A DNA stretch of 64,000 nt, taken from NCBI RefSeq assembly GCF_035084215.1, contig NW_027139217.1, forward strand, positions 1 through 64,000, given 5' to 3'. Positions 11,197 to 47,200 of this stretch are shown in pieces. The notes under the pieces were generated by a model that saw only the letters and a list, made by a program, of their open reading frames with translations, searched no databases and was not told where the DNA came from. Positions within the stretch are counted from its first letter, which is position 1, and every line of letters begins with the position of its first letter. This DNA comes from Heptranchias perlo (lineage: Eukaryota). The translations under genes were made by a program, and so were the position numbers.

Positions 11197-12245
11197 TTGA
11201 ACACAGATGTTGGGAAAGACGGAGAGTGAACGTCTCACAGAGTGAACTGTGAACACAGTCAGCACTTTCATTTGGTGAGTGTGGGAATGAGGTGTGGAGA
11301 GGGAAGGAGGTGCTCAGTGATTTAGGGACTAGAAACTAATCTATCAACACTAAAACTTAAATAAAAAATACATAACATTTTTTAAAAAGACTAAGTAATC
11401 GCTAATTATTTTGAAATTAAGCTAAATCCATTTACTCAATATAATCTAGATCTCAAGTGATTCTATTAGTCCTAGAAATAAACTACTGATTAAATAAATA
11501 AAAACTAGAAATGTCAGCGCAGGCCGTGTGTCGGGACTGTAATATGTGGGAGTTTGTGGACGGTGAGACTCTCCCGGATTGCCACATCTGCAGTAAATGT
11601 CTCCGGCTTGAGACACTCCGGCTCAGAGTCTTTGAGCTGGAGCCCGAGTTCGAGACACTCTGACACTTAAGGGAGGGGGAGGTAGAGAAGGAGGTCCCAC
11701 AGACACTGGTCCGATCCAACAGGTACGAGGTACTTGATAACTGTGAGGATAAGGATGAGGCTGCTGGGAGGAAGCCCAGGATGCTGACCAGGGCATCATG
11801 GAGCATGAGGCAGTCCAAGGGGGAGGGAGGATCAGAATGGAATGGTTTTACTCATAGGGAATTCTATCATCAGGGGGATCGATAGACTCCTCTGCTGTCG
11901 CGACCGAGAGTCCAGGAGGGTGTGTTGTTTATCTGGTGCAAGGGTAAAGGACATCTCAGAGCAACTGGAGAGGAACTTGGAAAGGGAGGGGGAGGATCCA
12001 GTTGTTCTGGTCCATGTTGGGACCAATGACATAAGGAAGAACGAGGAGGAGGTCCTGCTAAGGGAATATCAGAAGCTCGGAACTAAATTAAAGAGCAGGA
12101 CCCCACGGGAGGTAATCTCAGGTTTACTACGTGAGCCACGTGCTAATTGGCCCAGGGATAGGCAGATCAGGAAGGTGACTGTGTGGCTGGAAGACTGGTG
12201 TGGGAAGGAGGGGTTCCATTTCATGGGACATGGGCACCAGTACTG

Positions 12246-13112
12246 GGACAGGAAGGAGCTGTACCCCCGGGACGGGAAGGAGCTGTACCCCCGGGACGGG
12301 AAGGAGCTGTACCCCCGGGACGGGAAGGAGCTGTACCCCCGGGACGGGAAGGAGCTGTACCCCCGGGACGGGAAGGAGCTGTACCCCCGGGACGGGAAGG
12401 AGCTGTACCCCCGGGACGGGAAGGAGCTGTACCCCCGGGACGGGAAGGAGCTGTACCCCCGGGACGGGAAGGAGCTGTACCCCCGGGACGGGAAGGAGCT
12501 GTACCCCCGGGACGGGAAGGAGCTGTACCCCCGGGACGGGAAGGAGCTGTACCCCCGGGACGGGAAGGAGCTGTACCCCCGGGACGGGAAGGAGCTGTAC
12601 CCCCGGGACGGGAAGGAGCTGTCTCACTGGGATGGGAAGGAGCTGTACCCCCGGGACGGGAAGGAGCTGTACCCCCGGGACGGGAAGGAGCTTTACCCCC
12701 GGGACGGGAAGGAGCTGTACCCCCGGGACGGGAAGGAGCTGTACCCCCGGGACGGGAAGGAGCTGTCCCACTGGGACGGGAAGGAGCTGTACCCCCGGGA
12801 CGGGAAGGAGCTGTACCCCCGGGACGGGAAGGAGCTGTACCCCCGGGACGGGAAGGAGCTGTACCCCCGGGACGGGAAGGAGCTGTACCCCCGGGACGGG
12901 AAGGAGCTGTACCCCCGGGACGGGAAGGAGCTGTACCCCCGGGACGGGAAGGAGCTGTACCCCCGGGACGGGAAGGAGCTGTACCCCCGGGACGGGAAGG
13001 AGCTGTACCCCCGGGACGGGAAGGAGCTGTACCCCCGGGACGGGAAGGAGCTGTACCCCCGGGACGGGAAGGAGCTGTACCCCCGGGACAGAAAGGAGCT
13101 GTTCCACTGGGA
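12246..13112 (+). repeat. 21-bp in-frame tandem array (KELYPRDG-type, 7-aa period), ~41 copies, inside the CR1 ORF1 esterase domain
   Basis: GGGAAGGAGCTGTACCCCCGGGAC-type units flanked by normal ORF1 sequence (QYWDR ... WDRLHLN). Confidence 0.97.
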
Positions 13113-15950
13113 CAGGCTCCACCTGAACCGGAATGGGATCAGAGTCTGAGCGGAGAGGATAAATGGGGCGGAGGAGAAGGCTTTAAACTAGCAAGATGGG
13201 GGGAGGGTCTGGGACAATAATAAAAGTCTGAAGATAAAAGAAACAGGAGATGAGTGTAAAGGTCGGACCAGGGTCAGGAATAAAGATAACATAAACGGTC
13301 AAGGAACAAATACAGTTATAAACCAGAGTATAAAAGGACTGTTAAAAATAGAGCCAGAGCAGTAACTAATAAAGATGATTTAAACAGTCCATCCAGCAAT
13401 GTACACGGTGCCCAAAATAAAACAGGGGAACTGGAGGCAATAATCCGTAGTGAGGAACCAGGTGTAATGGGAATAACTGAAACACGGCTACAGAAAGGAC
13501 AGGACTGGCAACCAAATATTGCAGGTTATAACATAATCAGAAAGGACAGGGAGGAAGAAGGGAGTGGAGTAGCTGTAATAATTAGAGATAATTAAAAAGG
13601 GACATAACTAACAGAAGGATAGAAACAGAATCCATATGGATTGAAATAAAAGATAAGAAGGGATCGACCCCACTAATAGGGGTTTACTGCAGACCACCTA
13701 ATAGTGGAAAGGAGGTGGAGGAAGAAACCTGTAAACAAATATGTGAAATGAGTGAAGGACATAGAATAATAACCATGGGAGATTTTAACTCTCCCCAAAT
13801 AAACTGACAAGAGGAGACAGGTAAAGGGGTCCAGGGAGTGGGGGTTTTACAGTGTGTTCAGGACTCCTTTCTTACCCAGTATGTGAGAAGCCCAACAAGA
13901 AAGGAAGCAGTGCTGGATCCAGTAATGGGAAATGAACCAGAGCAGATCAGGGAAATAAGTGTCGGGAAACATCAAGGCAATAGCGATCACAACATAATAA
14001 AGTTGAAGATAAATATTGAGAAGGACATCAGTAAGACAAAGTCATAGATTGGAAAAAAGCTGATTTTCACAGGATGAGAATGGAACTTGGGAAAATAAAG
14101 AGGAAATATTTCCTGAAACAAAGAAACAGAAGAGCAGTGGGAAACATTTCAAACGGTGATCAATAGAGTCCAGGAGAAATACATCCCAGTAAAAAGCAAG
14201 AACAAACTAACCAGTAATGATACACCATGGATGAATAAAGAAATAAGGGTAAAATTGTAACTTAAGAAAAAGGCATCGTCTGAATTATAGACAATAAAGG
14301 AGAGGAGGAGAAAAGGGAACACAAAAAGGTTTGGAAAGAAGTCAATCAAATAATTAAGAAAAGCAAAGAGAAATTACAAACATAATTTATCAAGGAATAT
14401 AAAAAGAAATAATAAAATATTCTACAGACACATAAATAACAAAAGAAAAATCAGGATAGGCACAGGGCCATAAGGAGATAAACACGGTAAACTCACAGGT
14501 AATGACAGTGAAATGGCAGAAATATTAAATAATTATTTTGCCTCAGTATTTCCCAGGGAGACTAACACGGTGGGCAGGACATTAGAAGAAGAGATCAAAA
14601 AATATAGAAAGACATTTAAGATCGAAAGGGGGAGATAATTGATAAACTGATCAAACTTAGAGAGGATAAAACCCCTGGTCCGGATGGATTGCATCCACGA
14701 ATATTAAAAGAAGTTAGGGAAGAGATAGCAGAGGCACGATTACATATATATAAACATTCATTAGAAAAGGGAATAGTGCCAGAGGACTGGCGGACAGTTA
14801 ATGTGATTCCTATATTTAAAAAGGGAGATAGAACAAGTCCAGGGAACTCTAGGCCAATTAGCTTAACGTCGGTGGGAGGAAAGATAATGGAATCTTTACT
14901 CAAAGATGTAATAAAAAAAATCTAGAAACTGAAAATATAATAAAGAACAGTCAGGATGGATTTCAGAAGGGAAGGTCATGCTTGACCAAACTTATTGAAT
15001 TCTTTGAAGAAATAACAGAAAGAGTAGACTAGGGTAATGTAGTAGATGTAATATATTTGGATTTTCAAAAGGCCTTTGATAAGGTACCACATTGTAGATT
15101 CATGACTAAGGTCAGAGCATGTGGAGTCAGGGGACAGGTAACAGAATGGATAACAAGCTGGCTACAAAACAGAAAACAGAGAGTAGGGGTTAAAGGTAGT
15201 TACTCAGACTGGCAAAAGGTGGGAAGTGGTGTTCCCCAGGGATCGGTGCTGGGACCACTGTTGTTCACCATTTACATCAACGATTTGGACTCAGGAATCG
15301 GAAGTACAATTTCAAAATTTGTGAACGACACCAAATTGTGGGGTATAGTTAATGCCGAAGAGGACTGTGACAAAATACAGGAAGACATCAAGAAACTTGC
15401 AGAATGGGCGTGTAATTGGCAAATAAATTTCAATATAGATAAGTGTGAGCTGGAACATTTTGTTCGGAAGAATAAGGAGGCCCCATAGTGCTGGGTAGAG
15501 GAGCAGAGGGATCTGGGGGTACAGATACACAAAATCACTACAAGTAGCGACACAGGTTAACAAGGCCATAAAAAAGCAAACCAATCACTGGGGTTCATTT
15601 CTAGAGGGATAGAATTGAAAAGCAGAGAAGTTATGTTAAACTTGTATCAAACCTTGGTTAGACCACACTTGGAGTAATGTGAACAGTTCTGGTCTCCATA
15701 TTATGAAAAGGATATAGAGGCACTGGAGAAGGTGCAAAAAAGATTTACGAGGATGATACCAGAACTGAGAGGTTTACCTATCAGGGAAGATTGAACAGGC
15801 TGGGGTGCTCTCCTTTAGAAAAGAGAAGACTCAGGGGTGACCTGAAAGAGATCTTTAAGATTATGAAAGGGTTTGTTAGAGTCGACGTAGAGATGTTTCC
15901 ACTTGCGGGGGAGACCAGAACTAGGGGCCATAAATATAAGATAGTGACTA

Positions 15951-16747
15951 AGATAGATACAAAAATTGGCCGTGTAGTTGATGGTGAAGAGGATAGCTGT
16001 AGACTCCAAGAAGATATCAATGGGTTGGTGGAGTGGGCGGAAAAGTGGCAAATGGAGCTCAACCCGGAGAAGCTTGAGGTAGTGCACTTAGGGAGGGCAA
16101 ACAGTAAAAGGGAATACGCAGTAAACGGGAATATATTGAGAGGGGCAGAGGAAGTGAGAGACCTTGGAGTGCATGTGCACAGGTCCCTGAAGGTGACAGT
16201 ACAGGTAGATAAGGTTGTGAAGAAGACATACGGAATGCTCTCCATTATTAGCCGAGGTATAGAATACAAAAGCAGGGATGTAATGATGGAACTGTATAAA
16301 ACGCTGGTAAGGCCACAGCTGGAGTATTGTGCGTAGTTCTGGTCACCACATTACAGGAAGGATGTAATTGCTCTGGAGAGAGTGCAGAGAAGATTTACAA
16401 GAATGTTGCCAGGGCTTGAAAATTGCAGCTACGAGGAGAGATTGGATAGGCTGGGGTTGTTTTCCTTGGAGCAGAGGAGGCTGAGGGGAGACTTGATTGA
16501 GGTGTACAAAATTATGAGGGGCCCAGATAGAGTAGACAGGAAGTACCTGATTCCCCTAGCGGAGAGTTCAAGAACTAGAGGACATAGATTTAAGCTGATT
16601 GACGGAAGGATTAGAGGAGACATGAGGAAAAACTTTTTTACCCAGAGGGTGGTGGGTGTATGGAATTCACTGCCCGAATTGGTGGTAGAGGCAGGGACCC
16701 TCAACTCTTTTAAAAGTACCTGGACCTGCACCTAAAGTGCTGTAAGC
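15951..16747 (+). mobile_element. Second CR1 ORF2 3' fragment nested in the first
   Basis: The frame restarts at DTKIGRVVD and repeats the RPQLEYC and RRLRGDLIE motifs already passed upstream. Confidence 0.85.
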
Positions 16748-17761: not shown

Positions 17762-18387
17762 GTATCATAGTAGTATGTTCCAGCACAGAAGGAGGCCGTT
17801 CGGCCCATCGTGCCTGTGCCGGCTCTTTGAACGATCTATCCAATTAGTCCCACTCCCCCTGCTCTTTCCCCATTGCCCTGTAGCTTTTTTCTCTTCAAAT
17901 ATTTATCCAATTCCACTTTGAAAGTTATTATTGAATCTGCTCCCACCGCCCTTTCAGGCAGTGAATTCCAGATCAGAACAACTCGCTGTGTAAAATAATC
18001 TTTCCTCATCTCCCCCCTGGGTCTTTTGCCGATCACCTTAAATCTGTGTCCTCTGGTTACTGACCCTTCTGCCACTGGAAACAGTTTCTCCTTATTTACT
18101 CCATCAAAACCCTTCATGATTTTGAACACCTCTATTAAATCTCCCCTTAACCTTCTCTGCTCTAAGGAGAACAATCCCAGCTTCTCCAGTCTCTCCACAG
18201 AACTGAAGTCCCTCATCCCTGGCACCATTCTAGTAAATTTCCTCTGCACCCTCTCTAAGGCCTTGACATCCTTCCTAAAGTGCAGTGCTCAGAATTGAAC
18301 ACAATACTCCAGCTGAGGCCTAACCAGTGTTTATAAAGGTTCAACATAACTTCCTTGCTTTTGTACTCTATGCCTCTATTTATAAAT
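17762..18387 (-). mobile_element. CR1 LINE 3' fragment
   Basis: QRKFTRMVPG...RRLRGDLIEVFKI...FTQRVV plus the CR1 3' UTR. Confidence 0.92.
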
Positions 18388-19340
18388 GTAAGGAATCTTA
18401 CAACACCAGGTTATAGTCCAACAGTTTTATTTGAAAATCACAAGCTTTCGGAGGCTTTCTCCTTCGTCAGGTGAGTTTGTGATTCCTTGAAGGTTACCGC
18501 ATATATAGTCAGAGAACAATGCCTGGTGATTACAGATAATCTTTCCAACTGCCCATTGTCAAGGCACTCAGACAGAGAGACAGTACATACAGGACTACTG
18601 AATATACAAACGGTCCGAACCCAAAGACAGAGAGAGAGAGAGAGAGAAACATCCGAAAGGAAGAGAAAGAGAGAGAATGACCAGTTGTATTAAAAACAGA
18701 GAACTCTTTTTTCGCTGGTGGGGTCACGTGTAGCGTGACATGAACCCAAGATCCCGGTTGAAGCCGTCCTCATGGGTGCGGAACTTGGCTATCAATTTCT
18801 GCTCGCCGATTTTGCATTGTCGTGTGTCTCGAAGGCCGCCTTGGAGAACGCTTACCCGAAGATCGGTGGCTGAATCGTTCGCAGCAAATTACCCAGCTTT
18901 CAGGAGAACAGCGTCCACGACACCACACAACCCTGCCACGGTAACCTCTGCAAGACATGCCAGATCATCGACACAGATACCACCATCACACGAGAGGACA
19001 CCACCCACCAGGTACATGGTTCATACTCCTGTGACTCGGCCAACGTTGTCTACCTCATACGTTGCAGGAAACGATGCCCCAGAGCATGGTACATTGACGA
19101 GACCATGCAGACACTGCGACAACGGATGAACGGACACCGCGCAACAATCGCCAGTCAGGAGGGTTCCCTCCCAGTCGGGGAACACTTCAGCAGTCAAGGA
19201 CATTCAGCCACCGATCTTCGGGTCAGCGTTCTCCAAGGCAGCCTTCGAGACACACGACAACGCAAAATCGTCGAGCAGAAATTGATAGCCAAGTTCCGCA
19301 CCCATGAGGACGGCCTCAACCGGGATCTTGGGTTCATGTC
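18388..19340. mobile_element. Penelope-like element remnant: GIY-YIG endonuclease (+, ~18877-19340) preceded by an inverted copy of its 3' end (-, 18388-18875)
   Basis: CKTC...NVVYLIRCRKRC...YIDETMQTLRQRMNGH...VGEHF...GLNRD; 139-bp inverted repeat. Confidence 0.9.
18438..18474 (-). ncRNA. Minimal type I hammerhead ribozyme in the Penelope 3' region
   Basis: UCAC-CUGACGA-A-GGAG-AAAGC-CUCC-GAAA-GC-UU-GUGA: both core boxes, stem I (UCAC/GUGA), stem II (GGAG/CUCC), palindromic AAGCUU stem III. Confidence 0.75.
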
Positions 19341-20256
19341 CCCTCCTATTTCTCATCTCCATGCTGCCCCTTGGTGACATCATCCTAAAACCCAACGTCA
19401 GGTTCCACATGTACACTGATGACACCCAGCTCGACCCCTCCACCACCTCCCTCGACCCCTCCACTCTCTCTCATTTGTCACATTGTTTGTCCGACATCCA
19501 GGACTGGAGGAGCAAAAATTTCCTCCAATTAAATATTGGGGAGACTGAAGTCATTGTCTTCGGTCCCCGCCACAAACTCCGTTCCCCAGACCCCCGACTC
19601 CATCCCTCTCCCTGGCCACTGTCTGAGGCTGAACCAGACCGTTCACAACCTTGGGGTCCTATTTGACCCTGAGATGAGCTTCTGACCCCATATCCGCTCC
19701 ATCACCCAGACCGCCTACTTCCCCCTCAGTAACATCGCCCGTCTCCGCCCCTCCCTCAGCTCATCTGCTGCTGAAACCCTCATCCGTGCCTCTGTTACCT
19801 CCAGACTGGACTATTCCAATGCTCTCCTGGACGGCCTCCCATCTTCCACCCTCCATAAACTTGAGCTCATCCAAAACTCTGCTACCCGTATCCTAACTCT
19901 CACCAAGTCCCGTTCACCCCTCACTGACCTACATTGGCTCCCGTTTTGGGAATGCCTCGATTTTAAAATTCCCATCCTTGTTTACAAATCCCTCCTTGGC
20001 TTCACCCCTCCCTATCTCTGTAACCTCCTCCAGCCCTACAACCCTCCGAGATCTCTGCACTCCTCCAATTCTGGCCTAGGCCCTAAGCTCTGGAATTCCC
20101 TCCCTAAACCTCTCTGCCTCTCTCTCCTCCTTTAAGATGCTCCTTAAAACCTACCTCTTTGACCAAGCTTTTGGTCACCTGTCCTAATATCTCCTCATAT
20201 GGCTCGGTGTCAAATTATATTTCATAACGGTCCTGTGAAACGCCTTGGGCGATTTT
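19341..20256 (+). mobile_element. L2-clade LINE 3' part; its tail resumes at 21799-21847
   Basis: LFLISMLPLGDII...HMYTDDTQL...LQLNIGETE, SRLDYSN, LHWLP; tail ends TAAATGCAAGTTGTTG. Confidence 0.88.
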
Positions 20257-20401
20257 GTCATGGAAGGTGCAGCACAGGAGGAGGCCATTCGGCCCATCGT
20301 GCCTGTGCCGGCTCTTTGAAAGAGCTATCCAATTAGTCCCATTCCCCTGCCCTTTCCCTAAAGCCCTGTAAATGTTTTCCCTTCAAGTGTTTATCCAATT
20401 C
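20257..20401 (-). mobile_element. CR1 3' terminal segment fused to the 3' end of the RXYLT1 retrocopy
   Basis: Aligns by eye with the CR1 3' UTR at 17780-17912. Confidence 0.88.
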
Positions 20402-20459
20402 ATGTAGTTTACAACAGTAAACAGCTGCTAGGATTGTCTTGGGAAGGAGATCCAAGTTG

Positions 20460-21798
20460 TTAAAAAAACCTGTTTTCCAGGAGATCAATAAATTTTTGCC
20501 TCAGTTGAGTTCTGAACTGCTTAAACCACTCGATGACAATTCTCCGTCTCTGATTCTTTACTTGCAGGCTCATCGCCTTCTCCTTCTCTAAAATAGCAGG
20601 CAATTCTTTCCAGTCTTTGATTAAGATAAACGGTGCTCTCATTAACTTCAGGAGTCGTAACGGGGCGTTCTGGAATACCGATGAGTTGCCACATTGTCCC
20701 GGCATCATGATGTCTTCAACAACTGGAACGGAGCCGGAAGAACAGGCTTCATAAATTCTGTAACATTCGGTATTTATTCCCACTGGGCACAACATGAGGT
20801 CACTTTGCAGCAAAGCTTCTTGGTACTTCTTTAAACTTTCACTTCTTTCCTGAGGTAGTCACTGTTCTCTAACCGAGATAAGACACATTGTATTGAGTCT
20901 CTCTCCTCTCAATATGTCCAGCATGATTTCCCTGGAGGAGCCTTTGTAGACAGTTCCGAGGAAGTTACACAAGTATGGCCTTGAAGAATGCAACATTAAA
21001 TTGTTGAGATCCACAATGGGGAAGTTCCTGTAGGTTGCCACTCTCAGCAGCCACTGGTAAACATCCTCTTCATTTACCCAAGGGCTGTCATACACCAGAA
21101 AAATCAAATCAATAAATCCTCCGTGTTTTCTGAGGGAGGGCTCAATCCAGTCATTATTGCACTGCTCACTGCCAAGCAGAACTATAGCGACTTGTCGTAG
21201 TTTGTGTGTCTGAAGGAGTGTCTGTACATAGTGCAGCCACTGGGTGGTAAACTTGATCTTTCCTTCCTCTCTGCCATTCAGCACAAGCACCAGATTCTCA
21301 GTATCGAGCGGGATATGTCCAGGGACCACATCAGGACCAGTGTAGAATCTAAAATATCAATTTCCAGCCTTTAGCTCCCCTTCTCTCCAGTGAGCTGTCA
21401 CATCACCTGGTGGAAGCTGGCCACCAAGAATTTGCTGCCAGAGGTAAAGTCCAATTGCAGCTTTGCTCCAGATCTGCACCTTCTTCTGTTTGGGTGGGTT
21501 TTGTAAAATTTGTTTCTGAAATCCCTGTAGCTGAGCTTTATGCTATAAAGCATCCTCTGTCTTCTCATCCTCTTCCCAGGGATTGCACTCAGTGTCTTGT
21601 TCGGACTGGTGCAAATCCCGTTGTTCTTCTATCTTCTGCCACGCAAGTGGACTGTCCTTTTTACGCTCCCTGGGAGCGGCCACCCTGTGGGCCCTGGAAC
21701 TCTTCTGGCCTCTAAAGAAGACGATGTAAGCCACGTCAATGGAAAAGAAGCAGGAAACAAAAACCAGGAAGCATGCCGCCTGCTTCCACATCAATCAC
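20460..21798 (-). pseudogene. RXYLT1: Processed (intronless) pseudogene of ribitol-5-phosphate xylosyltransferase 1 (TMEM5)
   Basis: One continuous frame with [68 protein letters not shown]. In-frame stops at about 21543, 21357 and 20859; no introns. Confidence 0.93.
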
Positions 21799-21845
21799 TT
21801 TTACTACGTTAAAGAGGATATATAAATGCAAGTTGTTGTTTTTGT

Positions 21846-22098
21846 TGTACAATTGCCCCCTTACTGGTCCCATCCTGTCCCAGGACTGTAGGGGTACAAT
21901 TGCCCCCTTACTGGTCCCATCCTGCCCCAGGACTGTAGGGGTACAATTGCCCCCTTACTGGTCCCATCCTGCCCCAGGACTGTAGGGGTACAATTGCCCC
22001 CTTACTGGTCCCATCCTGCCCCAGGACTGTAGGGGTACAATTGCCCCCTTACTGGTCCCATCCTGCCCCAGGACTGTAGGGGTACAATTGCCCCCTTA
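21846..22098. repeat. 47-bp minisatellite, ~5 copies
   Basis: GGTACAATTGCCCCCTTACTGGTCCCATCCTGCCCCAGGACTGTAGG. Confidence 0.96.
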
Positions 22099-24186
22099 AC
22101 GATGACAAACCGGGGATAACTTGTGACGACCTCAGGGGCTGGATATCTTCACATGAAGAAGGAAAAACAGAACAATTTCCCAATTCTTCCACACGCCATC
22201 TTCAAGGGAATCCAAACCAGGAATGGGTGATCCCTCCATGGTCCCATGGCAGCTGAAGGAAGCAGTTTCCATCAAGGACCAGTCAGCACATCACAGGGAA
22301 AAGGAACAAATCCTCTCAATGACCTCCCCCGACGGTTCGCTCAATTTACCGAGTCGGGAACTCCGAGACTCGATCCCTGGTGTGTGCCGAGTGTCCGCAG
22401 GGACGGTGCAAATGGCATCAAACCTCCCCCCTCTCGGGCCGTGCTTAGGAGGGGGAAATTGTCCCCGGTCCCACTACTCGGGGTTATCCAGTGCCTCTTC
22501 CTGGACATTGAGCTGTGTGTGGATGGAGATTGGGGAGAGGATGGAGAATAACAGTGATGCCCCGATAGTTGAATAACCTGCCGTCATTTATCAAGGCTTA
22601 CACTGGAATAACATCGGATTGGGAAGATGTAGTGGGCGGTGAGCAGCTCTTGTGGAGCTTTACCTGAAGCGAGGAGTCAGCACCTTAGGGTGGGGAGGGC
22701 AATCGGTGGGTGGGGGACGGGGTGCAAAGGCCCCCCGAGCAGAATGGGAGATTTTTGTGAATGAATTGAAATGTGTGTTGAAGCAAGGCTGGCCCGATGA
22801 TTGTGGACTGCAGTCTGCTGTTTCAGGCCTCACCCCACCATGTGGGAAGTGAGCAAGAACTGGAGTCACTCTGAAACTGCTGGAGGGCAAAGCTTGAACT
22901 CGGTTTCAGGTTCCTGCCAAGGTGAAGGGGGATCGATGCTGAGTGAGTGCTGGGGAGTTATACTTCACACACTGAACACACTGAGCACCACAGGTCTCTC
23001 TGAGTTAGCAGCACTACTGGACATGTATGTACACCCCACATGTATGTGCTCGCCTGGGCACCGTGACTCTTGGGGTATCAGAGAGAATCTGAGCAGCTGG
23101 AACCAGACCCGTGATTTTTATTGGGTATCAAGGGAAATGGAACAAAATGGGGTCGAGGGACAGATCAGCCACCATCTAATTGAATGGCAGAACAGGCTCG
23201 AGGGGCTGAATGGCCTGTGTTTCTTCAGTCTCTCCAGTTAATTCAAAGTTATTCCTTTGCTCGTAAAAAAAAATTAGAATTATCCAGTGGTTCAAATTTA
23301 AGTAAATCAAGTGGAATTTGCTTGAAAAAAATTGAATGAATCGATCCCTTGGATGAAGTAACTTTGAATGGCGAGGAGTTAAGTGTGGAGCTCGACCAGC
23401 GTTAGTTAATGCAGCCCACAGGTTAGTATAACTGGAGGCCTGTTTGTCCCACAGGGTTCGGTTCTCGTCTCTGCTGTTGGATGAAAGAGTTGATTTAAAT
23501 TCAGCGATTGAAGTGTAGACTTTATTTAAAAATCATCTCAATTTACAGGAACGTTGGGGAGCTCTGCCCCACACACCATTACAGGGAAACCTTACAGTGT
23601 ATTGTCTTTCAGACATTGGATTGTCACTAAACCCCGATTGCAGCCCTCAATATGGCAGTGAGCTGGATTTGGAGCGAAGGAGTGTGGGGGGAGGGAGCTG
23701 TGTCTTGTGTCCCTGAGCAGCCCACAGAGGGAGTCAGCCTCCCACGTCTCTTTACCAAACCTGGATCAAGGGGTTGATGACGAGTGAAGTCTGGCGCACA
23801 GCACTGGACGTTCATGTCTAAAATATCATCGTGTCTGGCACGCTGCAAGCTATCCTGCAAAGGTCCTTCCACCATGCTGAAAGTGGATGTCAGGCATACT
23901 GCTGATGGGGAAAGTGCTGGGAGGTATTACCTGGAGGCCAGGTATATATCCAGAGCTTGGTACCTACCAGAGAGGTGAACAGCTCCTGCCAAAGCTCCCC
24001 AGCTCCGTCTGATGGGACCACCATTGGAAGGGGTACGGTGTGTGTCCATGCCCTGATCATGAGGATGGTGGGAGTGCAGCATCTTATGGTGTGTTGTGCT
24101 ACTTACCACGATGCTCACGAGGAGCCCCCTCATACCCACTCTCAGTCTGCAAGTTGCCTAATGACCAACTAGTAAGATAAGTGGGT

Positions 24187-30322: not shown

Positions 30323-31427
30323 TTCCCTTCAGTCCTTTTATTCATCAATCTCGACACTCCCTCCTCGAGTGGATCAGATTGATCCAGATCCACTTTTAAT
30401 GAGTGATCTGATCATCGCTGATTGTCGAGTGCTCGTACAGTCCGAACGAACGGATACTCACACTTGTGCAGTATCTAACAGGACATTAGACAAAGGATGA
30501 TCATTGGTGGAAGCCATATCACCGTTCCATTTCCACTTGTTGTAGAGTGGGGACTATTTGTCTCTGTCTGTGTCAGGTCGATTTAAAAATCCCGAGTGCA
30601 ACAATCACCAGTCCAATCTGAATTATCAATAACAACATCGATGTGATCCTGACCCACGGATATTGTCCAATGTTATAAACAATCTCCACCCTTCATGATC
30701 TCCAAACATTTGGGGGGTGTATCAGTTGTGGAGAGTCCCAGTGGGCAGAAGTGGTCTGACTTAGGACGTTGTGTATCCGTAGACCCAGATGGAGATATTG
30801 AGAAGTGTTGATCGTTTCATGTTGAACAGCCACCCCAGGAGACTTGGTCTTTAACAGTCTACACATCAGGAGAAAGAGAAAACACGGGCAGTAATGGCTG
30901 TTCTTTGTTAATCCCTGATCCTCCCTCTCTTTCCCTTCGGAACCTCATAAGGGTTGTCCCCAGGATTGCTTCCCCTTTAATGACATCCTGGGCAGGGAGA
31001 GATAGTCGTCTCCCTCTCAATTGCTGTCGGCCCCTTCTCTCTGGTGAGGACAATGGAGCTCGGGGGAAGGGCTCATCGTCCCAACACCGGGGTCGTTCCC
31101 CCCATGGGATATTGTCCAATGGGATTTCATTTATTGAACCTGCTGGGGGTGGATTCTGGTTGGGAAATGCTTTTCGCTGGTTAACATGGAACCACTTTTC
31201 CTTTTGTCCATCATCACCTTGTACAGCGATGGGCTGGCCTTGTCCACTATGGGTCTGGGCCTTGATAGGTAGCAGAGAATGGGCCGGTCTGGTCATAAGT
31301 CTTGACCAGAACCTGTTGGCCGATCTGTCCTATTCCACAGGCCGCACTTTTCCATCAACGTACATTTTAACCCCCAGCGTGCTGCATCTCCTCCCCGGTG
31401 AAATGACTTCCTTGGTCTGAATCAATG

Positions 31428-31666
31428 GATCACCGGACTGTCAGATCACCAGACTGCCAGATCACCAGACTGCCAGATCACCGGACTGTCAGATCACCAG
31501 ACTGCCAGATCACCGGACTGCCAGATCACCGGACTGCCAGATCACCAGACTGCCAGAACACCAGACTGCCAGATCACCAGACTGCCAGATCACCAGACTG
31601 CCAGAACACCAGACCGGCAGATCACCAGACTGCCAGATCACCAGACTGCCAGATCACCAGACTGCC
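31428..31666. repeat. 16-bp tandem repeat at the site of the missing integrase core
   Basis: GATCACCAGACTGCCA, ~15 copies. Confidence 0.95.
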
Positions 31667-34197
31667 CCTTTAATGAGGTGAGAGTTGTGACTGGACCAGA
31701 ATGTCACACTGTAGGTGCCTGGTGTGCCTGATAAAGGAAGTGATTCCTTAAGCCCTCCAGTCCGACCCATGCTCCGACCCGGAATAATAAACCAGCCTTA
31801 ACTGTTAATCCCTTTCTCCCTTCACCCGGGCTCGGAGGGGAGATTCCCGCCTCCAGTGAATTAATCACTTGCTGGATTTGGATCTCCTCAGCCTGCGTCT
31901 CCTTCAAATCCCCCAGAGTCAGAGGATCTTTCAGGAAGGTCACAATCTCTGCTGGGGAAGCTCTCGTTCGAGGGTCCCACTGAATTCCATTCTCTCCCCC
32001 TTCTTTGACCAACTGCTCTGCCCTCTCATTTCCTTCCCACCCACTCCCGTTCCTGGTGTGAGCTTTAACTTTCTGTGATGTAATTTGCCCTGCGTACGAT
32101 TTAATGTGTGAGGAAACGGACTGAAGTCGTGGGGGGGCCGATGGGAAAAGCTTCCCATCCGCTGATGGAAAACCTCTCTTTTCCCAGATGGGTGAGGATT
32201 CCGTCCGGGAATCTGAATCGATGGCGGCTGGGAGCTGAACCTGGCTCATCTGGGTCATCATCTCGATAATCACTGCTGATTCAGCTGTTTGAGCCCAGAG
32301 GGGGGATGGTCACAGTCGGGAGATCTCCTTTCCCTGTTGTGGAAATATATCCCACAGCCAGTTAGGTGTAACCCCTCTCTTTGCTCGTCAGGAGCCGCCA
32401 ACAAACACTGGAGTAGAGTTGGGAATTTTCTGGGCCTTGAATCGGTCCATTCCCCAGATCGGTGGTTACCTTATAACGGTGGGGCCGACCCTGATACAGC
32501 AGCTTTCCGGGTAAGTTCGGGTCAGTCTCTGGTGTGTTTGTCCACGGTATCTCTACCCTGGAGGAGGAAGGTCCACCTCACTGGTCAGTTATTGAGACTG
32601 ACCCATCTTTCAATCTCCCATCGAACAATAACTCGGTCGGGGAGTGAGATGTGAACAAATGCAGGGGAGCTCGGCCAATGATGTCAGTGAAAAGCTGCAC
32701 CGGTCCAGAATGTGGCCGAGACGTGCCCTTCACCTGCTGAATAATTAACCTGGACCGGCCTTAGGACCCAGGAGACACACGCTACAGGACACAACTTCCC
32801 CGGTGTCTCCTGCAGCAATCCAGCTGGCAGAGCAAACTCGGAAACTGCCACTTGGAGTGAGGAAGGGCCTTCTGGGGTGGCTGTTGTAAGACGGGAGCTG
32901 TGTGAAGAGCAGCTTTTAGTTTCCCCACTGCCTCTGTGCAGGCAGGCGTCCAGTCCCAGGGCGCATCCGTCTTTAGCAAGGCAAATAAGGGAGTGCTGAG
33001 AGTCACAGAGTCTGCTGTCCAGTCCCTCCAATACCCACCCGAACCCAGGAAAGATGGGACCACCTTTACTGAGGGAGCCTGGGGAACTCCTGCAGTGTTT
33101 GTCCTTTCCCTCGGGCTCTGCTTTTCTCATCCTCCCTGACGGTGACTCCACTGGGAGATTTGGGCTTTTTTGGGATTGACTTTCACCCCCGGTCTCTGAG
33201 CAAACTCAGTAACTCATCCAGGAGATGAGTGTTCAGAAGCTTCCTGGGAGAATCAACACGGCTTGAAGAGGTGGGCAAATCCGGGCTGTGTATTCCCACC
33301 ACTCCCTTCACTCTCCGCACTCATGTTCAGACAGTGCGAATGTCTGGGGGTTTCTGTCAACGACCCTCTTTCTATCCTCTGGTGTGGACCTGAAGAGTTC
33401 CTCCAGGTTGGAATTTTTCACTCTTTGTATTAAACACCCCTCCCCTTCTCCTTCTGGAATATCGGTCAGGGGATTCCTGGTTCCCCCTTCAGCTTTCCAG
33501 AGGGACTGAACCAGGTTAATCTCGGGAGACTGACCAGCGATTGGATCCATTCCCAGTATCACTGAGTGTCATCAGAACACCAGACCAATTGAATGGGTGG
33601 GCTCCCAACACCATGGCTCTGGGGTTTGATTCGAATCCTAATTGGATGTCCCAGTAAACCCCCACCCACCCCGGGTCACTGTGACCCCCCCCCCCCCGGG
33701 TCACTGGGGGGTCCAATCCTGCCCGGCCTCTTTCCTCACCAGCCTGATCTCCCTTCCAGTCCTGCCCACAGTCCCGAGCAAGGTGTCCCGTCTCCCTACA
33801 GTTGGAACATTTCATCCCACTGCTCCCTCTCACCCTGACACTTGTATTTATGGGGTTTTCTGTTGGTTTCCCGCTCCCTTTCTTATCCTGACCCTGTTTC
33901 TGAGTCCCAGGTCCCTCATTTTTCCGAGCTGTGACCAGACTTACCCTGGGCTCACCACCCACTTTCCGGTTTTCCCAGGTTCGGGTCATTCTCTGAAGGA
34001 CACACGCCTCACTCTGGTTCGCCTCCTCTGGGATCGAATCCCACAAGGGCAGACGGCAAATAGGGTCGGGCCTGACCGTTCAGGCTTCTAAACCAGTGGC
34101 TCACTGTGGGACGCTGCCCGAAGACCCACCGTTCAATCCTGGACCGTACACCCGATCATAGAGTCGTTATAATCGATTGGCAAACACCTCGCGATAT

Positions 34198-36586: not shown

Positions 36587-36886
36587 TGAAGCATTTTCTC
36601 ATTAACCCTGTGAGGCTCGGCTTAAACAAGGTACAGAGTGGAGAGAGAAACTTCGATAAACTTCGATAAAATTAGACAAACTTAGTCACAGACACAAAGA
36701 GTACTTCCCTTTTTGTTCCTTTTATTACAACAAAAATAAATACTCAATACACAATCCCAATTTCGATTACAGATGTTAACAATACTCAGTAACTAAATTT
36801 ACTCCATCATTCAGTCGCCAAATACACACAACCTTTGTTCGGACTGCACTGCACCCAGAATCAAGGAGTGATCAGCTCCCTCCATC
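36587..36886 (-). repeat. 5' LTR, partial, truncated by an L2 fragment
   Basis: Matches 29845-30130 (CATTAACCCTGTGAGGCTCGGCTTAAACAAG ... GATCAGCTCCCTCCATC). Confidence 0.8.
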
Positions 36887-37180
36887 CTCCCATCTTCCAC
36901 CCTCCGTAAACTTCAACTCATCCAAAACTCTGCTCCCGTATCCTAACTCTCACCAAGTCCCGTTCTCCCATCACCCCCTGTGCTCACTGACCTACACTGG
37001 CTCCCGGTCCGGGAACGCCTCGATTTTAAAATTCTCATCCTTGTTTTCAAATCCCTCCATGGCCCTCGCCCCCTCCCTATCTCTGTAACCTCCTCCAGCC
37101 CTACAACCCTCCGAGATCTCTGCGTTCCTCCAATTCTGGCCTCTTGTCCACCCCCACTCCCTTCACCCCACCATTGGTGG
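36887..37180 (+). mobile_element. L2-clade LINE fragment
   Basis: [27 protein letters not shown]; similar to 19836-20075. Confidence 0.88.
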
Positions 37181-38223: not shown

Positions 38224-41200
38224 CTGTGAAAAGAAAAGATTTCTGACAAACAGACATTGTAGAACACAGNNNNNNNNNNNNNNNNNNNNNNNNNNNNNNN
38301 NNNNNNNNNNNNNNNNNNNNNNNNNNNNNNNNNNNNNNNNNNNNNNNNNNNNNNNNNNNNNNNNNNNNNNNNNNNNNNNNNNNNNNNNNNNNNNNNNNNN
38401 NNNNNNNNNNNNNNNNNNNNNNNNNNNNNNNNNNNNNNNNNNNNNNNNNNNNNNNNNNNNNNNNNNNNNNNNNNNNNNNNNNNNNNNNNNNNNNNNNNNN
38501 NNNNNNNNNNNNNNNNNNNNNNNNNNNNNNNNNNNNNNNNNNNNNNNNNNNNNNNNNNNNNNNNNNNNNNNNNNNNNNNNNNNNNNNNNNNNNNNNNNNN
38601 NNNNNNNNNNNNNNNNNNNNNNNNNNNNNNNNNNNNNNNNNNNNNNNNNNNNNNNNNNNNNNNNNNNNNNNNNNNNNNNNNNNNNNNNNNNNNNNNNAGA
38701 GGCACACAGACAGCCAGAGATACACACACACACACACACACACACAGAGGCACAGAGACAGAGAGAGTGGGTGAGAGACATGGAAAGAGAGAAAGTCAGA
38801 GAGAGAGAGAAAGACATGGGTGGAGACAGAGGGACACAGAGACAGAGAGAGAGACAGAGACAGACACAGAAAGAGACATATGCAGACAGACAGGGACACA
38901 GACAGACCCACCCTTGCACTATTTGCACACTTACGATTTGCTGGGCTGTAACCAGATTTTTTCTCTCCTCCTACAAGAGACAGAAACAGACAGAACTTCA
39001 GTTACAAACAGCTCCTCGATCAGCACAGCCCCTCGCCGACACAAACTTACTCCAGAAACAGGGGCAATGACCAGATTTCCCTGTGGGCACTCACAGGAGG
39101 CTCACTGAGAAACAGGCATCGGACAATATCCTCTCTTCACCCGGTCCCTTCACTCCCCAATCAGGCCCGGTCCCTTCACTCCCCGTACGGGGCCCCGGTC
39201 CCTTCACTCCCCGTACGGGGCCCCGGTCCCTTCACTCCCCGTACGGGGCCCCGGTCCCTTCACTCCCCGTACGGGGCCCCGGTCCCTTCACTCCCCGTAC
39301 GGGGCCCCGGTCCCTTCACTCCCCGTACGGGGCCCCGGTCCCTTCACTCCCCGTACGGGGCCCCGGTCCCTTCACTCCCCGTACGGGGCCCCGGTCCCTT
39401 CACTCCCCGTACGGGGCCCCGGTCCCTTCACTCCCCGTACGGGGCCCCGGTCCCTTCACTCCCCGTACGGGGCCCCGGTCCCTTCACTCCCCGGACGGGG
39501 CCCCGGTCCCTTCACTCCCCGGACGGGGCCCCGGTCCCTTCACTCCCCGTACGGGGCCCCGGTCCCTTCACTCCCCGTACGGGGCCCCGGTCCCTTCACT
39601 CCCCGTACGGGGCCCCGGTCCCTTCACTCCCCGTACGGGGCCCCGGTCCCTTCACTCCCCGTACGGGGCCCCGGTCCCTTCACTCCCTGTACGGGTCCCT
39701 GTCCATCACTGGACTGTGTCGGAGTTTCCCACATGTCTATGGGAAGTCTCTAATGTTCTGCCATTTGTGCTGTAACATTTGAACCTGCTCATCCCCGTGT
39801 GGGACAGATCCTGTCCTCATTTCCTACCTCTCTTCTTCCAGACAACGGCACCAATGACGAGAGCAATCAGGACGACGGCAGCAAGAACAATTCCAACAAT
39901 TAAACCCAGATTCGGTCCCTCTGAAGATCCCGGAGTCACTCGGAACGTCCCATCTGTGGGGGGAATAAGGAGGAGGAGAGAAATGAATAACGACAGTCGC
40001 TGCTGATTAGGAAGTAATGAGACCAAAGCTGTGCCTGAGACTGAGTTCGATTCGAGTCTGCGATGTGATGGGCAGTCTGATCAGAGCAAGTTGGAGGTTA
40101 GAAAGTTCAGCGTGGCTTTGATTCCACTCCTGGGAAGCACTTTGGGACGTTTCTCTCCATTAAAGGCACTTTATAAATACAAGTTGTTGCTTGTCTGCAG
40201 ATATTGGAATTACCCATCAGTCCAAAGTCATTACTAGTCCCCTCCACAAGTGATGAATCCCCAGCACAGTCTCAGAGTCGGCTGGTGGAAGTATAGTGAT
40301 GGGTGATACGGCCTTTCTATGGAAGGTTGAGGAGTTCAATGGACTAACGGCCTCCTTCACCTGACACACAGATCCCAGCCAGTCAATAACTCAGTGTAAC
40401 CCAGATATATGGTGCTGCTCATTATAGACAGGCAGGTTTGGAAATCTCTTGTATTTCTGAATAAAATTTCCCCGTCACCGTGGGCTGAAACTCACAATAT
40501 TCTCACTTTCCTTCATTTCAGACAGAACAGAATCTCTGGTTTAACTGAGCCTCAATCTCCAGCTCTGCAGAATGGGAGTGTTGGTGACTCATTACAATGG
40601 GGGCTCCCACCAGACCCCCTCCTCCCCGAAAATCCAGTCTCACCTCAAGGCCAGAATCAGCAGAGGGGGCGAAGGGGGGATATGAGGGAAGAGACGGCAG
40701 TCGCGACTCCCAGTTCCCAAGGAGGGTGTCGATGGGAACACTCTCCCCTCAGGGAGAGGTCATGGGGCTCGGGCCCACTCCAAGAATCACACTTAATACA
40801 GGCTGAGATTTCAGTGTAGCAGAGTGAGGGCCAGGGTCAGGGGTCAGAGGGAGGGCCGGGGTCAGAGGGAGGGCCGGGGGTTAGAGGGAGGGCCGGGGGT
40901 TAGAGGGAGGGCCGGGGTGAGGGGTCAGAGGGAGGGTCAGGGTAAGAGAGAGGGCCAGGGTCAGGGATCAGAGGGAGGGTCAGGGTCAGAGGGAGGGTCA
41001 GGGTCAGATGGAGGGTTAGAGGGAGGGCCGGGGTGAGGGGTCAGAGGGAGGGTCAGGGTCAGAGAGAGGGCCAGGGTCAGGGATCAGAGGGAGGGTCAGG
41101 GTCAGATGGAGGGTCAGATGGAGGGCCAGGGGTCAGAGGAAGGGTCAGGGGTCAGAGGCAGGGCCAGGGTCAGAGGGAGGGCCAGGGGTCAGATGGAGGG

Positions 41201-44200: not shown

Positions 44201-47200
44201 GTTTACAGTGGGGTTCCCCAGGGCTCAGTATTAGGACCACTGCTCTTTTTGAGAGATATTAATGACCTGGACTTGGGTATAGAGGGTATAATTTCAACGT
44301 TTGCAGCTGACATGAAACTCGGAAATGTAGTAAACAATGTGGAGGATAGTAACAGAGTTCAGGAGGACACAGACAGACTGGTGAAATGGGCAGACACATG
44401 GCAGATGAAATTTAACACAGAGAAGTGTGAAGTGATGTATTTTGGAAGGAAGAATGAGGAGAGGCGATAGAAACATCTTTAATCCTCAGCCTCAGACTCT
44501 CCCCCTGCACTCACTGATCCTCTTACCCCAGTCTCGGGTCTCCACTCCTGCTTTGCTGCTGTGATCCACCTGACAGGAGTAGGTGGCTCCGTCCTCGGGC
44601 CCGATCTCAACCCATCTCTTGATCTGGTAGGTGCCATCGTGGTTGGGCAGGATGCCAGTGGAATCAGTGTCTGAGATCGGCCGTCCATTTCTCAGGAGGG
44701 TGAGTTCGATATCTCGAGGGTAAAACCCCGTGACCAGGCAGGAGAGTTGGGCCGGTTTAGTGTCTGAGGCCTTGTCCACAGAAAGAAACACTTGGGGAGT
44801 AACTGAGAGTAAAACAGATCAGAGCCGAGTCAGTGTGAGACAGGGAACGGTGCAAACCCCTTTAAACTGGGGATTAGACCCCAGGCAACGGGACAAACCC
44901 CTTTAAACTGGGGATTAGACCCCAGGGAACGGGACAAACCCCTTTAAACTGGGGATTAGACCCCAGGGAACGGGACAAACCCCTTTAAACTGGGGATTAG
45001 ACCCCAGGGAACGGAACAAACCCCTTTAAACTGGGGATTAGACCCCAGGCAACGGGACAAACCCCTTTAAACTGGGGATGAGACCCCAGGGAACGGGACA
45101 AACCCCTTTAAACTGGGGATTAGACCCCAGGGAACGGAACAAACCCCTTTAAACTGGGGATTAGACCCCAGGCAACGGGACAAACCCCTTTAAACTGGGG
45201 ATTAGACCCCAGTCCCCCCTCACTCACCGAATCTCACTCCCCCCTCACTCACCGAATCTCACTCCCCCCTCACTCACCGACTCTCACTCCCCCCCTCACT
45301 CACCGACTCTCACTCGTCCCATCACTCACCGACTCTCACTCCCCCCCTCACTCACCGACTCTCACTCCACCCCTCACTCACCGTCTCTCACTCCCCCCTC
45401 ACTCACCGACTCTCTGTCCCCCCCTCACTCACCGACTCTCAGTCCCCTCCTCACTCACCGACTCTCACTCCACCCTCACTCACCGACTCTCACTCCCCCC
45501 CTCATTCACCGACTCTCACTCCCCCCCTCACTCACCGACTCTCACTCCACCCTCACTCACCGACTCTCACTCCCCCCCTCATTCACCGACTCTCACTCCC
45601 CCCCTCATTCACCGACTCTCACTCCCCCCCTCACTCACCGACTCTCAGTCCCCCCCCCTCACTCACCGACTCTCAGTCCCCCCCTCACTCACCGACTCTC
45701 AGTCCCCCCCTCACTCACCGACTCTCACTCCCCCCCTCACTCACCGACTCTCACTCCTCCCCTCACTCACCGACTCTTCACTCCCCCCTCACTCACCGAC
45801 TCTTCACTCCCCCTCACTCACCGACTCTCACTCCCCCCCTCACTCACCGACTCTCACTCCCCCCCTCACTCACGACTCCTCACTCCCCCCTCACTCACTG
45901 ACTCTCACTCCCCCCCTCACTCACCGGCCATCAGTTCCCTCTTTCCGTACTCGAGGTATTTCCTCAGCCACTCGATGCAGGTCCCCTCCAGGTATCCCTT
46001 CACCCCTTGTTTCATGGCCTTGTTCTGGTCCCACTTGTTCTTGGTGATCTCTCCCCACTGTACCGGTGTTACCCACACCATCTGATCCTTATCGAAGTTG
46101 ATCAAATCCTCCCCGTCCCAGGCGTACTGAACGAACCCTCTCGTGGTCCCATCATCCCCCAGATCACAGCCGTACATCCGCTGATACGTGTGGATTCCTG
46201 TCAATCAAACACAGGGGGTCAGTCAGACCCACACCCCCCACCCAGGGTCAGGGGTCAGACCCACACCCCCCACCCAGGGTCAGGGGTCAGAGTGAAGGAA
46301 TACTGCGGAGTGATCCTCGACCCCCAGACCCCGCCCCCCCCGGACCACCCTCGCAGCCCCGAGACAACCCCTCCCCCAGAACCCCCCCAAGATCTCGCCT
46401 CCCCACAGATCCCGCTCCCGGACCCCATCGCCCCCCAGACCACCCTCAAAACCCCCCCAAGACACCCCCCTCCCCCGGACCCCCCCCCCCCAGACCCTGC
46501 CTCCCCCAGACCCCACGTCCCCCCAGAGCCCGCCCTCCCCCGGACCACCCTCACACCCTCCCCCCAGACTCCGCCTCCCCCAGACCCCCCTCACCCAGAC
46601 CACCCTCACACCCCCCCAGACCACCCCCTTCACTGGACCCCACCTCTCCCTGACCACCCTCGCCCCTCCCCCGGACCGCCCTCACACCCTCCAGACTCTG
46701 CCTCCCCCCGGACCCCGCCTTCCCCGGAACCTGCCTCCCTCCGGACCCCGCCTCCCCCCAGGCCCCGGCTCCTCCGGACCACCCTCACCCCTTGCCCCAG
46801 ACCACCCACCCCACCACCCGGACCCCGCCCCTGCTCCCCAAACCACCAATGATCCCCAAATCCCCCCCACCCCTGTCTCCACCCCGCATCATTCGGACAG
46901 CCACTGACCCCCGGACCCCCCTCTAATCGATGACATTATCGGACCCTGATCTTTGTACTTAAAGGGACCTCCAACCTCCCATCTATGTATTTAAAGGACC
47001 CCCGGACCCCGAATAGTGTATTTAAAGGATCCCCCGGACCCCGATCAGTGTATTTAAAGGACCCCCCGGACCCCGATCAGTGTATTTAAAGGACCCCCGG
47101 ACCCCGATCAGTGTATTTAAAGGACCCCCGGACCCCGATCAGTGTATTTAAAGGACCCCCGGACCCCGATCAGTGTATTTAAAGGACCCCCGGACCCTGA

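Follow-up and report, generated by a model that had tools for sequence, protein, structure and literature searches.

How did an intronless copy of a protein-coding gene, RXYLT1, come to end in a piece of a CR1 retrotransposon, and how did the two enter the tail of another LINE? The question is raised by the 64-kb stretch at the start of contig C1050 (hereafter the window), and the genome searched for related sequences comprises 3.25 Gb. With a probability of about 0.85, we conclude that the window copy is one of 13 dead RXYLT1 copies that were made by a CR1 reverse transcriptase (RT), which would have bound the CR1 tail of the RXYLT1 mRNA and primed at its terminal repeat.

The inserted unit and its host element

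Features of the inserted unit and of its host LINE are listed in Table 1. The window copy matched both Pfam domains of the protein (RXYLT1_N, E 6.7e-39; RXYLT1_C, E 4.7e-60). Alignment with the spliced parent revealed no gaps over 1541 nt and 53 substitutions (3.4%). The original prediction of a full-length intronless coding sequence holds as to the introns, with five of five exon junctions crossed, but not as to length and integrity: the copy starts at parent nt 3-5 and lacks the initiator ATG and the entire 5′ UTR, and it contains three in-frame stops. The pN/pS ratio is 0.56. The window copy is a dead processed pseudogene, with no function of its own.

Table 1. Positions of the RXYLT1-CR1 unit and of the surrounding LINE in the window
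Feature	Position	Strand	Remarks
Whole inserted unit: RXYLT1 retrocopy and CR1-derived 3′ end	20257..21798	-	1542 nt; 96.6% identity to nt 5-1545 of the spliced parent, no gaps; TTTT duplication at borders
Intronless RXYLT1 CDS from codon 2 to the stop, without initiator ATG	20460..21796	-	PF24786/PF24785; 5 exon junctions crossed
Nonsense codons in RXYLT1 CDS	21543-21545, 21357-21359, 20859-20861	-	Codons 86, 148, 314
RXYLT1 stop codon	20460-20462	-	
Parental 3′ UTR stretch, 59 nt, with, at its end, the ATG that flanks the parental CR1 piece on both sides	20401..20459	-	Same in parent; also in species that lack the CR1 insertion
CR1 3′ end inherited from parent 3′ UTR: last ORF2 codons, 3′ UTR, start of terminal octamer repeat	20257..20400	-	
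Two-part stem-loop of CR1 tail, predicted RT recognition site	20271..20309	-	Fold and both-side changes across 68 unrelated tails
Target-site duplication TTTT, insert 3′ end	20253..20256	+	Single TTTT in 3 intact host tails
Target-site duplication TTTT, insert 5′ end	21799..21802	+	
Host LINE, left part, 5′-truncated, left edge approximate	19345..20252	+	87.6% to second copy at 36886-37142; ORF remnants
Host LINE, right part with terminal GTT repeats	21803..21847	+	Continues intact tails of L005, L007, L012

As predicted, the coding sequence passes about 60 nt beyond its stop directly into a same-strand CR1 3′ end: 59 nt of UTR are followed by a CR1 piece of 144 nt (145 with one shared base), without poly(A). 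The whole lies antisense inside the tail of an older LINE, which has no Pfam match and which we take from its ORF2 motifs to be an L2. Intact tails of this LINE at three other loci (L005, L007 and L012) hold TTTT only once at the insertion point. The TTTT on both sides of the insert is therefore a 4-bp target-site duplication and the unit entered in one event, which supports the proposal of a composite inserted into the LINE tail as a single unit. The unsplit relative of the host tail reported from the window is real and lies at 40130-40192, but it is more diverged and has TTTC at the insertion point.

The window is rich in LINE remnants. A long decayed CR1-like element at 11809-16735 (+) has an ORF1 with an in-frame 24-bp tandem expansion, which is presumably esterase-like from its motif, and a second element is nested in it. 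An ORF without Pfam match at 18874-19377 (+), at whose 3′ end the host LINE begins, resembles what we take to be the end of a Penelope-type GIY-YIG endonuclease. A 39-bp minisatellite (21848-22100) directly follows the terminal repeats of the host LINE. Further ORF remnants at 31400-34100 presumably belong to an LTR retroelement (zinc knuckle, RNase H). Pfam searches also detected MHC class I exons (alpha-3 C1-set and alpha-1 domain) at 44495-44818 and 51177-51584 (-) on this unplaced contig.

The parent gene and the CR1 insertion in its 3′ UTR

A DNA search found the parent gene on contig C21, with six exons bounded by GT-AG edges and an intact 446-aa frame. Its 3′ UTR begins with 59 unique nucleotides after the stop codon, followed by the same CR1 piece as in the window copy. 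The original prediction had offered two sources for the tail, a CR1 end already present in the parental 3′ UTR or a template switch at the window locus. The parental 3′ UTR does contain the piece, 59 nt after the stop, and the tail was thus carried over from the parent; the parental junction is common to 13 of 13 copies.

The origin of the piece in the parent was addressed with public contigs of four runs, of which three show an empty and one a filled site. Contigs of runs X9, X10 and X13 (three organisms, three studies) join L033:2788 to 2939, skipping exactly 150 nt, and three letters (ATG on the gene strand) fit on either side. Because no shift of the cut yields GT..AG, the gap represents an empty site, and the insertion that filled it elsewhere duplicated 3 nt. 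In run X6 (organism B, about 97% identical in exon 6), contigs enter the piece 39 and 31 nt from its two sides.

Runs X1, X2, X5 and X9 were taken as RNA since their contigs skip intron 5, and X6, X10 and X13 by analogy; none is recorded as RNA. Runs X1 and X2 derive from a single sample; their contigs of 1555 and 1539 nt agree at every position with exon 6 and with 72 nt of the piece, leave at the exon edge, and have their depth reappear over exon 5. The CR1 piece is therefore present on spliced parent transcripts. One X1 contig runs from inside the tail to 314 nt past it, so that some transcription passes the tail, and in species without the piece transcription continues for at least 85-126 nt past the insertion site. 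Contig depth falls after the tail (32.5 to 9.2, 52.4 to 4.8 and 43.9 to 16.5), although contigs cannot show RNA ends. In the parental UTR, neither AATAAA nor ATTAAA occurs up to the end of the tail; ATTAAA first appears 482 nt beyond the stop, and an organism B contig that stops near it gives a weak hint that the CR1 tail is internal to the mRNA. Of nine matches to the 309 nt that follow the tail, only that of the parent is full-length; the other eight are repeat matches of 42-75 nt.

CR1 identity of the 150-nt piece

According to the published descriptions, CR1 elements end in a 3′ hairpin followed by an 8-nt microsatellite, with no poly(A) (PMC8665684, PMC4316615, PMC5729268, PMC13343379). 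The piece has at least 1977 candidate relatives in the genome. Among 40 relatives scored, the top 11 were the parent and 10 retrocopies (96-100%) and the rest reached 92-94%; the window piece is 98% identical to that of the parent, against 92-94% for other family copies. Nineteen of the remaining 29 family copies were examined, and in all 19 the terminus is an 8-nt repeat (TATGATAC type) and poly(A) is absent, the three longest extending 1.5 kb upstream in decayed RT-coding frames (ORF2). The repeat is one base off the amniote motif. In a relative at 17839-18288 of the window, the ORF2 end has named matches in turtle and birds, at about 45-53%.

The predicted stem-loop had a folding z-score of -3.1 in the window copy and a modest -1.85 in the parent, where 10 of 200 shuffles were as good. 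In a comparison of 68 unrelated tails, 94-99% pairing was seen in the inner hairpin, and changes of the C-G to A-U type occurred in the outer stem; stem pairing reached 87% against 80.0 ± 0.9% in shuffles (0 of 2000 as high), a contrast that is inflated by relatedness. Judged by its hairpin, its octamer and the RT-coding ORF2 upstream in family copies, the 150-nt piece is a CR1 3′ end, and like the tail of a LINE parasite it has its 3′ end in common with a LINE family of the same genome. Zenon elements are poly(A)-tailed (PMC13343379) and were ruled out as a source, since the family ends without poly(A). No intact young partner CR1 was found among the closest family copies, which are 92-94% identical and of which the three translated were all decayed.

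Thirteen retrocopies with a common 3′ end

Two DNA searches, one with 18 matches and one with 14 (the parent and 13 others), gave 13 retrocopies on 12 contigs. Their 5′ ends are staggered, at parent nt 5, 646, 812, 963, 1043, 1075, 1203, 1210, 1260, 1287, 1307, 1333 and 1349, and the window copy is the longest. The 3′ ends of 12 copies fall within 10 nt of each other (parent nt 1541-1550), inside the CR1 terminal repeat, and that of the thirteenth, copy C6, lies near 1528 and is followed by repeat-like letters. All 13 lack poly(A) and have one UTR-CR1 junction in common. Copies C5 and C12 have extra repeat units, resembling RT slippage. Neither the DNA searches nor the profile search, a method that does detect RPS3A copies of about 80% identity, found an RXYLT1 retrocopy without the tail, and no copy includes parental UTR past the tail.

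Three copies cross exon junctions; the other ten start inside the last exon and so cannot show splicing. The longest flanking repeats measure 3-6 nt, with none of 7 nt or more among the 13 copies; as the search scans many offsets, the matches of 3-5 nt, except for that of the window copy, are mostly indistinguishable from chance and are not taken as evidence. In copy C6 (L010/L013, C6:85398085-85398497), parent nt 949 is followed directly by nt 1127, and the tail has apparently lost a short segment that lay between two direct repeats. Copy C29 lies within the 3′ end of another CR1-type element (L007:1501-2110).

Divergence from the parent ranges from 1.1 to 9.5%. At nine coding sites polarised by other species, ancestral bases were found at 9/9 in C29, 6/6 in C6, 5/9 in C15, 3/9 in the window copy and 1/7 in C12, and the tails of C29, C6 and C3 have kept more family-type bases. 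At site 1412, the parental base is present in all 12 copies that cover it and in none of 19 ordinary family copies. The copies record successive states of the parent, and the retrocopies therefore arose repeatedly; read from these sequence states, copying began soon after the arrival of the tail and recurred.

For some of the short copies a transcribed retrocopy, not the parent, might have served as a secondary source, an addition to the CR1-tail reading rather than a competitor, and one that we consider rather unlikely. C15, C4a and C4b have in common a base at 1408 that is neither parental nor family-type, as do C35, C1 and C5 at 1459. However, C4a differs from C15 and C4b at 1318, a private tail change of C15 is absent from the others, lost parental alleles account for the pattern equally well, and no contig with retrocopy bases was found among those listed.

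Control genes and alternative routes of copying

In the profile search, RXYLT1 gave seven retrocopy loci (11 matches), GAPDH none (4 matches), RPL21 none (1 match of 15 candidates), EEF1A one (9 matches) and RPS3A four old ones of 73-87% identity (11 matches). The GAPDH locus L047 was judged to contain an intron from the 560-nt gap to L049. A DNA search with the last exon of EEF1A1, like for like with that of RXYLT1, detected six young 5′-truncated copies (88-97%) among 11 matches. They have no poly(A) and short duplications, and five of the six end within 11 nt of each other; no LINE tail was seen in the last exon of the parent (L099/L091). These copies are L100-L104 and L107 (contigs C49, C26, C15, C2, C49 and C6), and the five ends lie around TAATGATT, at a distance of 14-24 nt from the preceding AATAAA. 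TAATGATT is similar to the CR1 terminal repeat; a CR1-type enzyme with relaxed priming is a possible explanation of these copies.

The EEF1A1 copies are the main support for copying of RXYLT1 independently of its tail, in which either termination of the main mRNA at the tail or priming at any ATGA-like motif would make the 3′ ends coincide; the drop in contig depth past the tail also fits. Against it, the parental UTR has its first poly(A) signal well beyond the tail and the empty-site species transcribe past the site. In addition, no RXYLT1 copy predates the tail, the oldest copies already having a more family-like one, and the profile counts set RXYLT1 apart from GAPDH, RPL21 and EEF1A. We regard this explanation as improbable. 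As EEF1A1 was copied without a CR1 tail, the tail would raise the rate of copying rather than be the only route. EEF1A1 mRNA is among the most abundant and that of RXYLT1 is not, and 13 copies against 6 likely represent a strong enrichment per transcript, although four control genes are a small sample. The link between tail and mobilisation is correlative, with 13 RXYLT1 copies bearing the tail and none without it.

Three of the old RPS3A copies (L036, L039 and L043 on contigs C34, C2 and C35) are about 70% identical to each other and have some 80 nt in common beyond a poly(A) signal and a short A-run; a single ancestor that was amplified, a common tail and RNA that read through the signal are possible sources. 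Neither the 10 kb examined nor a DNA search yielded the last exon of the RPS3A parent.

An L1- or Tx1-type enzyme primed internally, as for the tailless retropseudogenes of mammals, appears very improbable. The window duplication reads AAAA on the insert strand, and tailless copies with preferred end points have been described; these, however, have duplications of 8-30 nt and A-rich priming (PMC5322556), whereas none of the 13 RXYLT1 copies has a duplication of 7 nt or more, their end point is the CR1 octamer and not A-rich, and no poly(A)-primed RXYLT1 copy occurs alongside. The L1 ORF1 profile PF02994 had no matches in the genome, nor in its own controls, so that its silence does not speak for a scarcity of L1.

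A template switch from CR1 RNA to RXYLT1 mRNA at the window locus has precedents in chimeras with U6 and tRNA heads (PMC5729268); alternatively, CR1 might have entered the retrocopy later, in an independent event. Both were rejected: the intron-containing parent gene already has the identical junction, which recurs in all 13 copies, the parent and 10 retrocopies lead the 40 genome matches scored against the tail, and the parental base at 1412 separates the copies from the family. DNA-level duplication of the last exon or of one retrocopy, with which the ten copies uninformative on splicing would be compatible, was likewise rejected on the unrelated flanks, the staggered 5′ and fixed 3′ ends, the three spliced copies and the ancestral states that differ among copies.

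A proposed model for CR1-tail-mediated mobilisation

The CR1-tail reading can be arranged in four steps. Firstly, as the empty sites show, a 5′-truncated CR1 end of 150 nt inserted in sense orientation 59 nt past the RXYLT1 stop, with a 3-nt duplication, in an ancestor common to organism B but not to the empty-site organisms C, D and E. Secondly, the spliced mRNA carries the piece, as seen for its first 72 nt and presumed for the whole molecule, some transcripts extending beyond it. Thirdly, CR1 ORF2 protein encoded elsewhere may bind the stem-loop in trans and nick the target, and cDNA synthesis may start inside the mRNA at the octamer repeat; such a start omits the remaining UTR and the poly(A). 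Fourthly, synthesis broke off at different positions on many occasions, so that the 5′ ends range between nt 5 and nt 1349. The window copy inserted antisense into the older LINE tail and then decayed.

That the CR1 enzyme was the copier is inferred from these hallmarks. For the fish L2 elements UnaL2 and ZfL2, recognition of the tail by its stem-loop has been shown experimentally (PMC1636434, PMC4176376), and in UnaL2 template slippage adds repeat units (PMC1636434). The data suggest that CR1 can prime inside an mRNA and that 150 nt are enough in trans.

Implications

Reviews state that CR1-type elements make few retrocopies because they need their own tail (PMC5470649, PMC3136929, PMC3747384), and they leave the source of retrocopies in non-mammalian vertebrates with large genomes unexplained (PMC5470649, PMC3136929). 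RXYLT1 provides a natural before-and-after test: all 13 copies have the tail and none lacks it, the insertion can be dated, and there are species with an empty site. Its copies chronicle the history of the parent. A tail-bearing mobile host gene is an expected consequence of tail recognition, unusually well documented here. If the CR1 route is true, a copier that normally serves only itself could duplicate host genes, and the tail model predicts which genes get copied. Most such copies would escape retrocopy screens that depend on exon junctions and filter out repeats, since 10 of the 13 are confined to the last exon.

More tentatively, where CR1 dominates a genome, a sense CR1 3′ end acquired by the last exon might turn any gene into a long-lived, pol II-driven source of retroposons; retrocopy numbers per gene might be set more by the tail content of the 3′ UTR than by expression, and near-complete coding copies might give rise to retrogenes without L1. 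This broader view is less probable than not. In a literature search, with subscription papers and supplements outside its scope and a prior mention therefore possible, no published protein-coding gene mobilised by a CR1 end in its 3′ UTR was found, and the excerpts of PMC5131818, PMC7245038, PMC13320880, PMC3287187, PMC5322556 and PMC4350176 describe no such tail-bearing gene.

Comparison with known systems

Chimeras formed by template switching, such as those of U6 and LINE sequences (PMC4476161), have the same anatomy at a single locus, with a host RNA head and a LINE tail joined in one insertion; they are one-off fusions made during reverse transcription, whereas the RXYLT1 fusion pre-exists in the gene, its junction being present in the parent, and is reused. 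Processed pseudogenes made by L1 resemble the RXYLT1 copies in being intronless, 5′-truncated and decaying (PMC5470649, PMC3747384). The RXYLT1 copies differ from them in having no poly(A) (0/13), duplications of at most 6 nt (4 nt in the window copy versus about 8-30 nt), no distal 3′ UTR and ends set by a LINE tail.

In 5′ transduction, as in SVA_F1 with its spliced MAST2 sequence, a transcript from a host promoter likewise moves spliced exons, and one source gives a dozen or more copies (PMC3287187). SVA depends on L1, which mobilises it by way of poly(A) and leaves duplications of 4-20 bp (PMC3287187), whereas the element part of RXYLT1 is a 150-nt scrap of CR1, its cargo is a whole coding sequence and its source is a working gene.

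The tails of UnaL2 and ZfL2 (PMC1636434, PMC4176376) resemble the RXYLT1 tail in their two-part stem-loop followed by short repeats, with units added by slippage as in copies C5 and C12; the start of cDNA synthesis at the tail repeats is experimental for the fish L2 elements and inferred for the CR1 family of RXYLT1. Similar in principle are the SINEs mobilised by CR1, namely TguSINE1 and PittSINE (PMC5729268) and the HE1/HER1 pair of sharks (PMC3747384). In these, too, a non-autonomous RNA gains the use of the CR1 enzyme through a CR1 3′ end that is non-coding and bears a hairpin and an 8-nt repeat, and the copies end in the repeat without poly(A) (PMC5729268). Their head is a tRNA with a pol III promoter and their tail was gained by template switch, whereas the RXYLT1 head is the spliced protein-coding mRNA of an intact single-copy gene, not a small RNA with an internal pol III promoter, and its tail was gained by insertion into the gene and lies inside the transcript. 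It is accordingly not a SINE. In addition, the RXYLT1 copies are promoterless and number 13, against thousands of CR1-tailed SINEs.
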